Virus record (IMG/VR): IMGVR_UViG_3300042191_000068
Coordinates: 224 to 64,223 of that record
Length of the DNA stretch: 64,000 nt
Strand: one strand, 5' to 3'
From: a virus
Taxonomy: Duplodnaviria; Caudoviricetes
Shown: one piece after another, positions 6,090 through 56,715 of the stretch
How the letters are laid out: each line of letters begins with the position of its first letter
How positions within the stretch are numbered: position 1 is the first letter of the stretch
Translations under genes and position numbers: made by a program
Notes under the pieces: generated by a model
Database searches by the model: none
What the model was told of the DNA's origin: nothing
The model's input: the letters and a program-made list of their open reading frames with translations, nothing else

Positions 6090-6398
6090 TCACCCCTCCT
6101 CAACTACAAAATTCTGTGCAACCGTTTCGGCGTCGATGTCGTGCCGCTCGCACCACCGCAGGGCTTCGTCCGTAGTCATGACGATAATGCCCTCGCCGCC
6201 TCCGGTCAGGTTGCCGCAAGCCCTCGCCCATCTGGACATCGGCCCGCCTTCGCCGGCGACGAAGAACGCACCCTTCTTGGTTTTATACAGTGTTTCGTCG
6301 CAGTGCCCGAAATCTCTCCGGCCCAGATTGTTCGATCACTCTGCAATGAATTCTGCGGTCTCTGTGTTGTAGGTTTTCCCGTCGATCACTTTTTTCAT
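6090..6398 (-). CDS. Phage early protein with in-frame TGA at codon 21 (recoded or pseudogene)
   Basis: MKKVIDGKTYNTETAEFIAE*SNNLGRRDFGHCDETLYKTKKGAFFVAGEGGPMSRWA...; strong SD AGGAGG; the frame stays open for 81 codons after the TGA (6338-6336). Confidence 0.8.
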
Positions 6399-10991: not shown

Positions 10992-11342
10992 ATGCCAAAG
11001 GAATTACTTTTCTCAGTGACGAAGAAAGATCTTGAGATCGATTTCTTCAGTGGGACCGGCGCAGGAGGGCAGTATAGGAATAAGCACCAGAACTGTGTCC
11101 GTATTCGCCACAAGGATTCTGGAGCCTTCGCTACCGGGCAATCAAACCGGGAGAGGCCGGCAAACATCCAAGAGGCGTTTCGCAACTTGCTGGAGCACCC
11201 AAAGTTCAAGATATGGCAGTCGCAGAAGATATTGGAGTGCGTCTCCGGGGAGACGACCGCGCAGCGCGTGGAGAAAGCTCTGGCGCCGGAGAACTTGAAG
11301 GTTGAGGGGAAGGACGGAAACGGGAGATGGGAGGAATTATGA
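10992..11342 (+). CDS. Stand-alone peptide-chain-release-factor-like (GGQ) protein (116 aa)
   Basis: DLEIDFFSGTGAGGQYRNKHQNCVRIRH...SNRER.ANIQEAF matches the RF-1 catalytic domain; SD AGGAGG. Confidence 0.9.
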   Translation: MPKELLFSVTKKDLEIDFFSGTGAGGQYRNKHQNCVRIRHKDSGAFATGQSNRERPANIQEAFRNLLEHPKFKIWQSQKILECVSGETTAQRVEKALAPENLKVEGKDGNGRWEEL

Positions 11343-16591: not shown

Positions 16592-16783
16592 ATGAAAAAA
16601 GTGCAATGCGAGTGCGTAAAGTGCCAGCATAACGATTATGACGGAAAATCAGGGTGTGGGGTTTGCACCCTGGATGAAATCCAGCTCGATAAAAACGGAG
16701 TTTGCGCGGTTGTAGTAGGCCACATTTGTGGGGATATAATTTTAAAATGCAGAAACAAGGCCATGGCCGAAGTTGAAGAATGA
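16592..16783 (+). CDS. Small Cys-rich protein, DUF1540-like (63 aa)
   Basis: CECVKCQHN...C.VC.LDEIQLD..GVC. Confidence 0.6.
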   Translation: MKKVQCECVKCQHNDYDGKSGCGVCTLDEIQLDKNGVCAVVVGHICGDIILKCRNKAMAEVEE

Positions 16784-16813
16784 TCTACCTCAATAATCAA
16801 AGGAGCAATAAAA

Positions 16814-17029
16814 ATGTCATACTCACTCGTAACACCATGCTGTAATTACCCGTCCTCAACACCTGAAGGGCAGGGGGATTGTACCAAGAAAGACACATGC
16901 ACAGATCGCCATGTTTTGTACGGAGCCCTTGTCGCCATTCATGCAATGGCATACGGCACAGGCCATCTCGGGTCCGGCGAAATCACTCTGGAATGCAACA
17001 ACAAGACCGTGGCGAAAGCCGAGGAATGA
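16814..17029 (+). CDS. Small Cys-containing hypothetical protein (71 aa)
   Basis: SD AAAGGAG. Confidence 0.75.
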   Translation: MSYSLVTPCCNYPSSTPEGQGDCTKKDTCTDRHVLYGALVAIHAMAYGTGHLGSGEITLECNNKTVAKAEE

Positions 17030-17226
17030 TCTACTTAATCCTCGCAGCCATAACCGTCATCGGCGGCATATCCTACGCCGGTTGGCAACACGGCTACTGG
17101 CAGTGTCAGGTTGAGCAATACCTGCTTGGCGGCTTGGCGGCTTGTTACCTGCTGGCTGTTGCCGTAGGCAAGATATGCCGCAGGCTTTTTCCGGAGGACG
17201 AAGATGATGGTAGTAAAAGCGACTAA
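17026..17226 (+). CDS. Two-TM small membrane protein (66 aa)
   Basis: ATGA overlap; two hydrophobic segments. Confidence 0.65.
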   Translation: MIYLILAAITVIGGISYAGWQHGYWQCQVEQYLLGGLAACYLLAVAVGKICRRLFPEDEDDGSKSD

Positions 17227-17404
17227 GAAACCGAAATACATAGAGGTGAGACGGCAGGTAATTGAGGCGTACATCACCAGTTACCAATGCCCATCATGTA
17301 AAGTTATATTCGAAGGCGGCGGACCAGCGAGAAACGTAGTCAGGTTTAGGTGTAGTTGCGGCCAAGAACTTATCGTGAGGGAAGACGATGGTAGTAAATC
17401 CTGA
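17204..17404 (+). CDS. Zn-ribbon protein (66 aa)
   Basis: CPSC...CSCG. Confidence 0.7.
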   Translation: MMVVKATKKPKYIEVRRQVIEAYITSYQCPSCKVIFEGGGPARNVVRFRCSCGQELIVREDDGSKS

Positions 17405-17579
17405 ACCGATCCCAAGAGACGATGGTGGTACAGACTTCCGTATGTCTGAGTGTTCCGTCGCATGTTACGCGGTAAATGCTCAAGGAATGAGCGTCGAAAT
17501 ACCTTGTCCGTTTTTGAAGGTTGAAATCGGTGAGCCTCTTCGGTGCGGCGACCCTGCGATGAAGGAGATATTGGAATGA
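17388..17579 (+). CDS. Hypothetical protein (63 aa)
   Basis: Coupled ORF. Confidence 0.6.
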   Translation: MVVNPEPIPRDDGGTDFRMSECSVACYAVNAQGMSVEIPCPFLKVEIGEPLRCGDPAMKEILE

Positions 17580-17980
17580 TAAAAGTCGAGCAAAAAATAA
17601 ACATCGAGGTTGAAGGGCATAAGCTTGCAATCAGCCGGGAATCGGCAAAAGAGTTACATAAGCAACTTGGAAAATTGTTCGAGAGTAAGGAACGTAAGGA
17701 AAGTATTGAGGATTATATAAAGAAGCTCACACTGTTTAAGCCCCAACCTCTTTATGTTTCGCCTTATGTTCCGCCTCCAGTGTACGGCCCGGCAGAATCG
17801 ACAGACTTTCCATATGAAGTTACATGAGGGCTTGAGGAAACAAGAGCAGCTTCCCCTGGCTTGTTCAAAGTGTCTTGTGCATACGAAACAGTTGGCAAGT
17901 CCATTAGCGAGACTATTGGTAAGTCGGTTTGTGAACCGCTTGGAGAATCAATCTGCATCACTGAAGGCGAAAGTAGATGA
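17576..17980 (+). CDS. Hypothetical protein with in-frame TGA at codon 84 (134 aa if read through)
   Basis: After ...FPYEVT-TGA(17825-27) the frame continues for 50 codons, including 8-aa repeats ETVGKSIS/ETIGKSVC/EPLGESIC, and ends in an ATGA overlap with the next gene. Confidence 0.7.
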
Positions 17981-18129
17981 CAAGGTACCCTTGGTCCGAT
18001 CCAGAAGACAAAGTAAAGTCAGATTACTACCTCATCCCGAAAGATGTCAAAGCATTAATTATGGTCGGTGCGACATTCGAGCAGATAGGAAGATGGTTCA
18101 GAAGGATTTTCAAGAAGGATAAGAGATGA
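17977..18129 (+). CDS. Hypothetical protein with amphipathic basic C-terminus (50 aa)
   Basis: Manual ORF MTRYPWSDPEDK...GRWFRRIFKKDKR; ATGA overlaps at both ends. Confidence 0.65.
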   Translation: MTRYPWSDPEDKVKSDYYLIPKDVKALIMVGATFEQIGRWFRRIFKKDKR

Positions 18130-18398
18130 ATAAAATACTCGCAAAGATGGGCCTCATGTACCTTGCCAGCAAACTCGACGGCAAGAAAACCTATGTCGGC
18201 GCGGCTGTCCTCATGCTTCTCGGAACAGGGAAAATAATCGCCGGGCTTGTAGGCGTTATCGGCAACATGTACCCTGATGTCGGAGCTCCCGAGATTGACC
18301 TTGATGGATGTTACAACATGATACAGGCAGGCGTTGCGGCCTTCGGCGCAGGACTTGCTGCGATCGGGATCGGGCATAAGGTGGAGAAGACGAAATGA
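18126..18398 (+). CDS. Putative holin (90 aa)
   Basis: LDGKKTY N-terminal motif, two hydrophobic segments, GIGHK C-terminus; upstream of the endolysin. Confidence 0.65.
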   Translation: MNKILAKMGLMYLASKLDGKKTYVGAAVLMLLGTGKIIAGLVGVIGNMYPDVGAPEIDLDGCYNMIQAGVAAFGAGLAAIGIGHKVEKTK

Positions 18399-18718
18399 AG
18401 GATTTTTGCACCCTCAGCCCTGATCATCCATTCGGTTACGACATCTCTTTTTGATGCAGGCTACACGATGAGCGATACGAAGAGCAAACAATACCGAGAC
18501 TCGAAGCTGACCTCGAACTTAAATGGTGAGTCGCTCGCGTTGCCGGTCTGGAGATCGGTCAGAAATATTATGACGCAGTCAGATTGGCTGGCTGGTTTTT
18601 CTGGCGGAAAACGAAAATGTGGAGAACGCTAGATGGATATTATAAGAGAATGGTGGGCCGTTATTCTGGCGTTTCTCGGCGGGGCAATGTGGGTGGGAAA
18701 AATTCAGCGGGAAGTTGA
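18395..18718 (+). CDS. Phospholipase A2-like protein with two in-frame TGA codons (codons 20 and 45); candidate selenoprotein
   Basis: MKDFCTLSPDHPFGYDISF*CRLHDERYEEQTIPRLEADLELKW*VARVAGLEIGQKYYDAVRLAGWFFW; matches the CCxxHDxxY...AD..L..C pattern; SD GGAG and ATGA coupling to the holin. The C-terminal end is uncertain (86-nt overlap with the next gene). Confidence 0.8.
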
Positions 18719-18914
18719 AGACTTGAAGGCGGGGAAATTTGTTTCGAATGAGCGTTGCGGCGAACGCAGGCAAGAAATAAAAGACCTGACGGCCCTCCAG
18801 TTCGCATCTGGAAACGCACAATTTATCGAAATAAAAGCAATGGTGTCGAAACTCCAGGACAGCCATAATCAGCTTATCAAAGTCCTCATTGAGGACAGGA
18901 GGGATAACTCATGA
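18633..18914 (+). CDS. Single-TM coiled-coil protein, holin/antiholin-like (93 aa)
   Basis: N-terminal TM WWAVILAFLGGAMWVG followed by a coiled coil. Confidence 0.7.
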   Translation: MDIIREWWAVILAFLGGAMWVGKIQREVEDLKAGKFVSNERCGERRQEIKDLTALQFASGNAQFIEIKAMVSKLQDSHNQLIKVLIEDRRDNS

Positions 18915-19081
18915 GCACTGCAGAGCGTATCCAGGAGTTACTTGATTGCGCCGTTCGGGTGCCGGCGCGAGACGGAGCAGGCGTTATCACTCCTGCCGGA
19001 GTCGATGCTGCGATCGAGGTGAAGACCTTGCAACGGTGTTTGAAGATCGCTGCGGAGGAAGAGAGTGAAAGACTGGATTGA
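18911..19081 (+). CDS. Hypothetical protein (56 aa)
   Basis: Manual ORF MSTAERIQELLDC...; ATGA overlap. Confidence 0.6.
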   Translation: MSTAERIQELLDCAVRVPARDGAGVITPAGVDAAIEVKTLQRCLKIAAEEESERLD

Positions 19082-19535
19082 GCGATGCCTCGGGCACGAA
19101 GGCGCTTACTGGGACGACCCTGTCGGAGGGCCGACGAAGTACGGGATAAGCCAAAGGTCCTACCCAGACCTCGACATCGCGAGCCTCACAATTGACGATG
19201 CCAGAGCCATCTACCGGCGAGACTTCGTCAAGCCACTCAACCTGGATACTTACCCTCCCGGAGTCGCCTTCCAGTTGTTCGACTTCGCAGTAAATTCAGG
19301 ACCAAAGACCGCAATAAAGCAATTGCAGGAGGCTCTTGGGCTGAAGCCTGATGGAGTTGTCGGACCGAAGACCAAAGCAGCACTCGCCGGTAAAACTGAC
19401 TCTGATCTTGTCATGCTGGTCATTGCCGAACGTCTAGACTTCATGGCAAGTCTAAGGAACTTCATTCCGAACGCAAAAGGATGGGTTCGTAGGATGGCGG
19501 CGAACTTAAGGCATGGAGCCGAGGACACCGAATGA
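19065..19535 (+). CDS. Endolysin, glycoside hydrolase family 108
   Basis: HEGAYWDDPVGGPTKYGIS catalytic motif, FDFAVNSG, GWVRR C-terminus. Confidence 0.92.
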   Translation: MKDWIERCLGHEGAYWDDPVGGPTKYGISQRSYPDLDIASLTIDDARAIYRRDFVKPLNLDTYPPGVAFQLFDFAVNSGPKTAIKQLQEALGLKPDGVVGPKTKAALAGKTDSDLVMLVIAERLDFMASLRNFIPNAKGWVRRMAANLRHGAEDTE

Positions 19536-20479
19536 TGAGACAAACCTACCAAGGCAATACCGTTATCTTCGAGGATGAGTACTTCGTGCTGAACAGGTTC
19601 AGCGAGGGCGAGGGAACGCCCTGTTTCATCGTCCCGCCCTTCGCGGGCCGAGACGGCACCGTCACCCAGAACCTTATCAATAAGTGCGTTGAAGCGGGTC
19701 GCTCAACTTACGCCTACGAGTTGAAGTCGGCCACCCAAGAAACGAAGAATCTCAGTATCAACGGGCTGATCACAATCTTGGATGCTTGCTGCGACATGAT
19801 CTACGGTGAGACCGGAGAGCAGTCGGTAGACCTCATTGGTTGCTGCCAAGGTGGCTGGCTCGCCTCAATGTTCACCGCCCTACGCCCAGAGTGGGTCAAC
19901 CGCCTCGCCGTCTTCGCCGCGCCGATAAATACGCATTCCGGGAGCAAGAACCGAATCGAGGAGTATTGCGAGACCATCTCCCTGCCGGCGCACCGCCTGA
20001 TCGTCGGGCTGAACAACGGCGTTCAGCCAGGTATGGCCCAATGGCTCGCCTTCGCGGCGATGGCCCCGGAACAGATTTTCTTTGGGAGGTATCTCGACCT
20101 GCTGGCGCACATCGTCAGCGGACGAGATGCGGATATCGATAAATGGGAGAAACAGAATGGATGGTATGACAGCCCCAATGACTTGGCCGGTATATGGTTT
20201 CTCGACGCCCTCGAAAATCACTTTTGCAAGAACGCCCTCTACAACGGGGCCTGGGAGGTAGGAGGAAGTATTGTAGATCTTCGCAACGTCACTTGCCCGG
20301 TCTTCGTTTTCGCAGGCGAAGACGACGACATTACCTCCGTCGAACAAGCCCGAGGGCTGATCGACAAGGTCAGTTCAGAGTGGGACTTAGTCGTCTTTCC
20401 GAACTGTGGGCACACGAAATGCTTTACAGGGAGTAAAGAACTGGAACAGTTCGCGGAGTTGTTCTTCCAAGAGGAGTGA
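19532..20479 (+). CDS. Alpha/beta hydrolase of the PHA depolymerase/synthase (PhaZ/PhaC, DUF3141-like) type (315 aa)
   Basis: IVPPFAG; Cys-type lipase box LIGCCQGGW; AAPIN; GEDDDIT (Asp); GH (His). Confidence 0.8.
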   Translation: MMRQTYQGNTVIFEDEYFVLNRFSEGEGTPCFIVPPFAGRDGTVTQNLINKCVEAGRSTYAYELKSATQETKNLSINGLITILDACCDMIYGETGEQSVDLIGCCQGGWLASMFTALRPEWVNRLAVFAAPINTHSGSKNRIEEYCETISLPAHRLIVGLNNGVQPGMAQWLAFAAMAPEQIFFGRYLDLLAHIVSGRDADIDKWEKQNGWYDSPNDLAGIWFLDALENHFCKNALYNGAWEVGGSIVDLRNVTCPVFVFAGEDDDITSVEQARGLIDKVSSEWDLVVFPNCGHTKCFTGSKELEQFAELFFQEE

Positions 20480-56626: not shown

Positions 56627-56715
56627 TGGTGGGAAGCGATGGAATCGAACCACATGCCTGGAAGGAGCAGGGTTACAGTCTGCCGTCGGACCATCCGACC
56701 TTATTGACGCTTCCC
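56627..56715 (-). tRNA. tRNA-Tyr(GTA), atypical structure
   Basis: GCAGA-CTGTAAC-CCTGC anticodon arm, short variable stem, GGTTCGATTCC T-arm, acceptor GGGAAGCG/CGCTTCCC, ACCA end; abnormal D-region. Confidence 0.85.

Follow-up and report, generated by a model that had tools for sequence, protein, structure and literature searches.

Borges et al., in 2022, reportedly described stop-codon-recoded phages, in which TAG is read as Gln and TGA as Trp under genetic codes of the 4/15 type. In bacteria, the selC* tRNACys are defined by the anticodon UCA, U73, and tRNA-Sec-like features; they "may function as opal suppressor", and in E. coli they have inserted Cys in response to an opal codon (Mukai et al. 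2017, PMC5389517). The literature that we searched describes no phage gene as using UGA for Cys or Sec, and no phage selenoprotein. Here, we compare these systems with a phage gene that is interrupted by an in-frame TGA, and we argue with moderate confidence, from comparative sequence analysis, that this UGA is decoded in part as Cys, independently of a SECIS element.

The window, by which we mean the whole 64,000-nt stretch of DNA that was analyzed, covers almost the whole of a virus record of 64,223 bp that has direct terminal repeats and is rated complete. Its G+C content is ~52%. Minus-strand genes occupy the first ~10.3 kb, plus-strand genes follow to 47.3 kb, and the remainder is again minus-strand. 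The phage terminase shares only 30-40% identity with terminases from isolated phages that infect Proteobacteria. The gene under study sits first in the lysis module, and this position suggests a lysis-related accessory role for its protein. The module is ordered as follows:

17576-17980, plus strand: the gene with the in-frame TGA
17977-18129, plus strand: next gene, 50 aa, conserved in the relatives G001 (locus L004) and L002
18126-18398, plus strand: holin-like membrane protein gene
18395-18718, plus strand: PLA2-like gene
18633-18914, plus strand: spanin-like gene
19065-19535, plus strand: GH108 endolysin gene

Upstream of the module (16592-17579, plus strand) lies a series of small Cys-rich (CxxC) genes that share a recurring gene junction, GAAGAYGATGGTAGTAAA, which encodes E-D-D-G-S-K and overlaps the start M-V-V of the following gene; the recurrence suggests tandem duplication of small zinc-ribbon-like genes. 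Downstream (19532-20479, plus strand), an alpha/beta hydrolase gene is ATGA-coupled to the endolysin gene, and its nearest protein-atlas clusters are PHB-depolymerase/PhaC-like.

Within the first gene of the module we distinguish these features:

17562-17567, plus strand: Shine-Dalgarno sequence AAGGAG, 8 nt ahead of the ATG, read from the sequence
17576-17824, plus strand: N-terminal 83 codons, up to PYEVT
17825-17827, plus strand: in-frame TGA, codon 84, at a nearly invariant Cys of the family (VTC motif)
17828-17977, plus strand: in-frame tail of 50 codons, rich in Cys/Ser/Glu, with homology to the tail region of uninterrupted relatives (motif ESICITE)
17885-17980, plus strand: four tandem 24-nt (8-aa) units xxxGxSxC, with the terminal TGA in the Cys slot of unit 4
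17978-17980, plus strand: terminal TGA, overlapping the ATG of the next gene at 17977-17979 (ATGA)

The start codon (ATG 17576-17578) likewise overlaps the TGA of the preceding gene as ATGA. The N-terminal part opens with a conserved domain of a beta-hairpin and a helix (residues 1-35); another helix follows, and then a linker rich in Pro and Tyr that ends in PYEVT. An AF2 model (pLDDT 61) places strands at residues 7-12 and 15-20 and helices at 21-35 and 44-52, the remainder being disordered; compared with the PDB, it gave no significant match (best E=2.2), and PHROGs and Pfam gave no family for the N-terminal or the tail half. An earlier note on this DNA, made from the sequence, had reported that the frame runs on past TGA 17825-17827 for 50 codons to a TGA overlapping the next ATG, and this extension was confirmed. 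TGA 17825 is itself part of an ATGA, whose ATG (17824) starts a three-codon ORF (M-R-A-stop; 17824-17835, plus strand) in another frame, which is probably a coincidence.

An open run of 50 codons arises by chance in ~9% of cases and is weak evidence taken alone. The same note had judged that the frame of the tail's tandem 8-aa repeats appears to be under protein-level constraint, and the repeats bear this out. The four units read ETVGKSIS, ETIGKSVC, EPLGESIC, and ITEGESR-TGA, and the 28 pairwise differences among units 1-3 are distributed 11/0/17 on codon positions 1/2/3. This pattern would be expected only if the frame was translated while the repeats diverged, and it fits constraint on the protein. 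TRF did not call the 24-nt array, the identity being too low. The codon-usage score of the tail is 0.11 in frame and negative in the other two frames; relative to the reference distributions (in-frame 5th percentile 0.09, off-frame 95th percentile -0.16), this value is positive but low. No sign of a pseudogene was seen in the tail: there are no frameshifts or other stops over the 50 codons, the second codon positions carry none of the 28 changes, and pN is below pS.

The earlier note had also found no good start for the tail, which holds: the only canonical in-frame starts are TTG 17861 and GTG 17870, both without a Shine-Dalgarno sequence. The tail could in principle be a separate small peptide, made by re-initiation after 17825 at one of these codons, for example. 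Such a peptide would account for the constrained frame, and termination-reinitiation coupling is widespread in this genome, where an A precedes many TGA stops in a manner consistent with ATGA. But the first of the two starts lies 34 nt downstream, neither has a Shine-Dalgarno sequence, in every relative the tail is joined to the N-terminal part across the Cys codon, and the peptide would be without the conserved VTC. We regard this explanation as very improbable. Frameshifting was rejected because no change of frame separates the tail from the N-terminal part, and a ribosomal hop from ACA 17822-17824 to the in-frame ACA 17840-17842 because the conserved Cys would be lost; we regard the paired ACA codons as a coincidence. 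A-to-I editing was rejected because it would yield Trp and the TadA motif is missing.

Relatives were found with the read-through product in a collection of 5.8 billion proteins (L002, 113 aa; L003, 74 aa) and in a metagenome scan (L012, 104 aa), and the L002 protein covers 100% of the read-through query. All three have a TGC Cys codon at the column of the window's TGA: L002 at 1233-1235 (...CCATACGAAGTTACT TGC GGA...), L012 at 729-731 (...GAAGTAACT TGC GGG...), and L003 (...GTGACG TGC TCA TGA). In L002 and L012, the tail is in frame with the N-terminal part and shares with the window's tail the motif (S/G)ES(I/T)C(I/L)(T/A)E. A homolog search with both halves, which the earlier note had proposed, returned one joined ORF, and no relative has a stop at this codon or carries the tail as a gene of its own. 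A profile search of 1.84 billion representatives gave 11 proteins at E<=0.001. Cys occupies the codon-84 column in 11 of the 12 aligned family sequences when the window's TGA is counted as Cys; leaving the window aside, Cys is found in 10 of 11 relatives and the VTC motif in 9 of 11. One family member is without the motif and ends in TAG plus a terminator. Tails after VTC vary from 1 to ~30 residues, some relatives ending 1-3 residues past the motif, and a product that stops at PYEVT would be found in the window alone among the aligned family. In the family layout, a Pro/Tyr-rich linker leads from an N-terminal beta-hairpin/helix domain to the Cys of (P)Y(E)VTC, after which comes a variable tail rich in Cys, Ser, and Glu. 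We conclude that the gene is a member of a small phage protein family without annotation and that 17576-17980, judged from its sequence, is one gene rather than a gene and a spacer. A locus search of IMG/VR with the protein or the alignment returned no relatives.

Selection on the tail can be compared directly with that on uninterrupted genes. Over ESICITE, the window and L012 differ at four synonymous and no non-synonymous sites, and over the tail pS is 0.78 and pN 0.28 (p=0.003), which is like the uninterrupted pair L002/L012. This bears on the possibility that a TGC-to-TGA transversion created a nonsense allele, cutting a dispensable gene to 83 aa and leaving the tail as a young, untranslated remnant, with the open run then expected anyway if the mutation is recent. 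The gene-level data fit such an allele equally well. TGA stands at codon 84 in one genome only (the exact protein is on one contig only), TGA is the commonest genuine stop in the genome, neither a SECIS nor another read-through signal was found at 17825, and the closest relative (G001/L004, holin 92% identical) is without the gene entirely. Its absence there and the restriction of TGA-84 to a single genome also count against Cys decoding. On the other side, the change would have hit the one Cys codon that is invariant: 66 single-step changes in the gene would create a stop, of which 1 falls at codon 84 and 4 at any Cys. The terminal TGA (17978-17980) too falls in a Cys column, aligning with TGC/TGT in L012 and L002, and constraint on the tail is not relaxed relative to L002/L012. 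Weighing these points together with the neighboring gene described below, we consider a nonsense allele, the main rival reading, rather unlikely, though far from negligible.

The gene is accessory and dispensable. An alignment of L004:1000-1260 with window 17388-18129 has the gene (17576-17976) cleanly missing between the same two flanking genes, with the ends of these flanking genes rearranged at the indel. Eight holin-anchored viral loci were inspected, and none carries the gene.

The genome context shifts our reading of TGA 17825 from a nonsense allele to Cys decoding, chiefly through two further in-frame TGAs in the PLA2-like gene of the same module:

18452-18454, plus strand: TGA at the first C of CCxxHD
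18527-18529, plus strand: TGA at codon 45

The gene reads DISF-TGA-TGC-RLHD...KW-TGA-VARVAG. We compared it (window 18395-18718) with L004:1526-1852, L014:1500-1710, and L002:1922-2008. The two adjacent Cys codons of CCxxHD are TGC-TGC in G002, TGA-TGC in the window, TGC-TGA in L002, and TGA-TGA in G001, and at the third site (18527) TGA is shared by the window, G001, and G002. The N-terminal part aligns to solved microbial PLA2s, whose conserved Cys corresponds to the second CC codon. Between the window and G001, dS is 0.61 and omega 0.18 for the whole gene. Codons 22-44, which follow the first TGA, shared by both, differ at 8 of 15 synonymous and 6 of 54 non-synonymous sites (p=0.0012); since this segment is under purifying selection and holds no in-frame start, it must be translated and the UGA before it read. 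This UGA is followed by essentially unstructured RNA (MFE -4.2 and -1.4 kcal/mol). Downstream of the PLA2-like TGAs that are without a SECIS, omega is 0.13-0.18. In this clade, a TGA is evidently no dead end, which argues against the nonsense allele at 17825, and it is because the same clade keeps SECIS-less TGAs at the PLA2-like Cys codons under purifying selection that we infer read-through at codon 84. No uninterrupted close PLA2-like homolog was found among three word-sharing candidates of 59-191 aa from the 5.8-billion-protein collection.

The same comparison speaks to the quality of the sequence. An error in sequencing or assembly that hides a C or T at 17827 is conceivable for a single metagenome contig with the exact protein on one contig, but other samples, assembled independently, carry equivalent TGAs at the orthologous Cys codons (G001, G002, L002). 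This recurrence makes a systematic error in the clade unlikely, and we give an error at 17827 scarcely any credence.

A fourth in-frame TGA does not follow the pattern:

6090-6398, minus strand: early gene with in-frame TGA at 6338-6336, large unannotated family with 193 homologs

Among 27 homologs, the column of this TGA is mostly Trp and otherwise mainly Tyr, with Ala or Asp in three, and the two closest homologs have Trp. This Trp/Tyr column, not a Cys column, counts against Cys decoding. All four in-frame stops found in the window are TGA, stand at TGN-box (Cys/Trp-type) columns, and lie only in small accessory genes. No in-frame TAA, TAG, or frameshift was seen in the genes examined. We also counted in-frame stops across the genome, with tblastn and with codon scores, but off-frame and antisense ORFs dominated these counts, and further in-frame stops could exist; in these noisy censuses, the long conserved genes had no in-frame stop on the sense strand.

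TGA is nonetheless the normal terminator of this genome. It ends 50 of the 85 genes (59%), and in 30 of them an A stands just before it, consistent with ATGA overlaps. The codons of the window include 263 TGY (Cys) and 289 TGG, so that in-frame TGA makes up <1% of Cys and Trp sites (4 vs 552 Cys and Trp codons). Read-through at 20477 would join two unrelated enzymes. Because TGA terminates normally in 50 of 85 genes, any suppression must be partial or context-dependent. The TGA majority among terminators and the TGY and TGG counts together rule out genome-wide reassignment and disfavor random decay, and we rejected reassignment under code 4, 10, or 25 because TGA is the main terminator.

A suppressor encoded by the phage was likewise rejected, because the only tRNAs found were a tRNA-Pro(UGG) and an odd tRNA-like gene with the anticodon GUA; a relaxed ARAGORN scan for a suppressor tRNA gave noise only. 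ARAGORN missed the tRNA-like gene, which lies at 56632-56714 on the minus strand. Its acceptor stem has 8 bp, its T stem 4 bp, and its D stem 6 bp; position 73 is A (A73), the CCA is encoded, and the match to the Rfam tRNA-Sec model is weak (22.8 bits, E=0.03). The gene resembles a phage tRNA of the 8/4 type and, with its anticodon GUA, cannot read UGA. At 10992-11342 (plus strand), the window also encodes a 116-aa ArfB-like protein whose sole domain is an RF-1/GGQ peptidyl-tRNA hydrolase (Pfam PF00472, E=3.6e-12); a tie to UGA usage is conceivable.

The earlier note had proposed that the TGA is read as Cys or Sec. The homologs support Cys, by the TGC codons of L002, L012, and L003 and by the near-invariance of the residue in the wider family. 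Sec at 17825 fared less well, for the reasons that follow, and the read-through itself is in either case what we infer. Insertion of Sec would mean that host SelB and tRNA-Sec read UGA-84 and that the gene is a phage selenoprotein gene. A TGA matched by Cys in homologs is a classic selenoprotein signature, and the inferred host order uses Sec, with tRNA-Sec in 111 of 121 genomes. We looked for SECIS elements with a descriptor drawn from five MvhD genes that contain an in-frame TGA and come from the inferred host lineage. These five share a 6-7-bp stem that starts 13-16 nt past the UGA and a 5-nt loop xGGxx. Two hairpins of the window were considered:

17844-17866, plus strand: 8-bp hairpin with a bulged U and the loop UCCCCU, beginning 16 nt past TGA 17825
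18542-18559, plus strand: SECIS-like hairpin GCCGGTC-TGGA-GATCGGT, 12 nt past TGA 18527

The presence of the first hairpin is favorable to Sec, but it is not more stable than shuffled sequence (z=+0.97), its loop is without the GG of all five examples, and it fails the descriptor, which 14 of the 1931 TGA trinucleotides in the window (0.7%) pass. Rfam SECIS models found nothing in the 17825 region even at E<=10. The sole GG loop nearby, CUUG-AGGAAA-CAAG, begins 3 nt past the UGA, too close for a bacterial SECIS, and a structure ~11-17 nt past the UGA with a G-containing apical loop is absent. We consider Sec at codon 84 improbable.

The second hairpin gives a different picture. The in-frame TGA 18527 is among the 14 that pass the descriptor, and its orthologs in G001 and G002 pass as well, the one in G002 with different stem and loop letters. 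By these sequence criteria, TGA 18527 is a good candidate for a Sec codon. That one phage should carry a SECIS-like hairpin resembling those of the host MvhD genes, kept in three phages, also lends some plausibility to Sec at 17825.

The host lineage was approached through an RtcB fragment encoded by the phage (63204-63992, minus strand), which shares 72-73% identity with proteins from Ca. Electrothrix laxa and from two MAGs, one of Desulfobulbaceae and one of Desulfobacterales; among its best 80 matches (loci L029-L108), most are from Desulfobulbales. RtcB is a single, possibly transferred gene and the only clue to the host lineage, giving an order-level hint and not a host assignment. The similarity of the tRNA-Pro did not discriminate between hosts. 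Our tRNA survey covered a sample of 121 genomes, all from the order to which G009 belongs; G009 is a Desulfocapsaceae MAG and one of the RtcB hit genomes. Besides the tRNA-Sec noted above, 15 of the 121 genomes (~12%) have another tRNA-Sec-like gene, in which the anticodon is UCA, the discriminator is U73, and the CCA is encoded. It occurs in three sequence types, at these loci:

L114:1501-1599 (= L119:4316-4414): U73/UCA tRNA
L150-L158 and L161-L165: U73/UCA tRNAs

The three genomes with the best RtcB matches have no U73/UCA tRNA. In G009, this tRNA lies between an HdrA-like gene and MvhD/formate-dehydrogenase-like genes, and the latter contain no in-frame TGA in the stretch read.

A host with a U73/UCA tRNA would read UGAs that are without a SECIS as Cys, in competition with RF2. 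Such a decoder fits the interchange of TGA and TGC at Cys columns, the rarity of TGA, and its restriction to genes that tolerate low output. Near-cognate reading by the ordinary tRNACys(GCA) is a weaker alternative, because the three TGAs of the G001 PLA2-like gene would then leave almost no product. The host of this phage group probably reads some UGA as cysteine (or selenocysteine), a claim drawn from the codon comparisons.

The reading that we favor at codon 84 can be summarized as a mechanism. The host ribosome would decode UGA-84 as Cys without a SECIS and with partial efficiency, competing with RF2, to give two products, one of 83 aa by termination and one of 134 aa at full length, with Cys84. 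The most concrete candidate for the decoder would be a selC*-type tRNACys(UCA) of the host that reads opal codons, with near-cognate tRNACys(GCA) as the fallback. Read-through, inserted residue, decoder, and host are each proposed from the comparisons above, and the junction tryptic peptide predicted from the read-through product is LTLFKPQPLYVSPYVPPPVYGPAESTDFPYEVT-[C/U/W]-GLEETR. More tentatively, we suggest that a phage clade, probably on Desulfobulbales-type sulfur bacteria, may use UGA in three ways, as a terminator, as a SECIS-directed Sec codon, and as a SECIS-independent Cys codon; we hold this wider scheme to be possible but doubtful. Within it, Sec would be assigned to codon 45 of the PLA2-like gene, and Cys, by way of the host opal-decoding tRNACys, to codon 84 and to the CC motif of the PLA2-like gene. 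If true, recoded codons in the lysis module would link expression to the recoding capacity of the host, as a host-specific lock or timer, and they would provide a simple, testable model of a phage that throttles lysis-module proteins through a partly readable stop codon. Gene callers would be expected to split or truncate such phage genes, for which the failure to find an uninterrupted PLA2-like homolog may be an example.

How does this locus compare with the systems described so far? Like the recoded phages, it has its in-frame stops concentrated in lysis-module genes, where they may gate expression of those genes. Unlike them, it uses TGA to end 59% of its genes and encodes no suppressor tRNA, and the four in-frame TGAs are mostly at Cys, not Trp, columns. 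The A1 protein of phage Qbeta offers a second parallel, in which a leaky UGA in a phage gene, that of the coat protein, gives a short and a C-terminally extended product; as in Qbeta, the extension past the stop in 17576-17980 is under coding constraint. The Qbeta stop, however, is conserved and read as Trp, whereas at codon 84 the relatives have the sense Cys codon TGC, the stop in the window is lineage-specific, and the extension belongs to the ancestral full-length protein.

The bacterial pairs of Sec and Cys homologs, where UGA recoding depends on SelB and a SECIS, are alike in having an in-frame UGA at the Cys of the homologs while UGA is the normal stop elsewhere. The likeness to bacterial selenoprotein genes extends to the Sec-using lineage of the inferred host and to the neighboring phage gene with a UGA and a SECIS-like hairpin, but 17825 is without a SECIS-like element and the protein is without a recognizable redox motif or fold. 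A further parallel is with the selC* tRNACys(UCA) of delta-proteobacteria, which read UGA as Cys and whose like we found in 15 of 121 genomes of the inferred order. Suppression of this type would likewise act on UGAs without a SECIS at sites that require Cys, such as codon 84 and the PLA2-like CC motif of the window, L002, and G001, which has no structure downstream. What differs is the target, as a phage target of these tRNAs has not been described before. If the reading is true, these genes would be the first candidate natural targets for the selC* tRNACys(UCA) of delta-proteobacteria, and the first mRNAs known to be natural targets of selC*-type tRNAs, as well as the first phage genes with UGA for Sec or Cys. 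Phage genes would then use a host recoding of UGA to Cys or Sec that has so far been described for cellular genes only.
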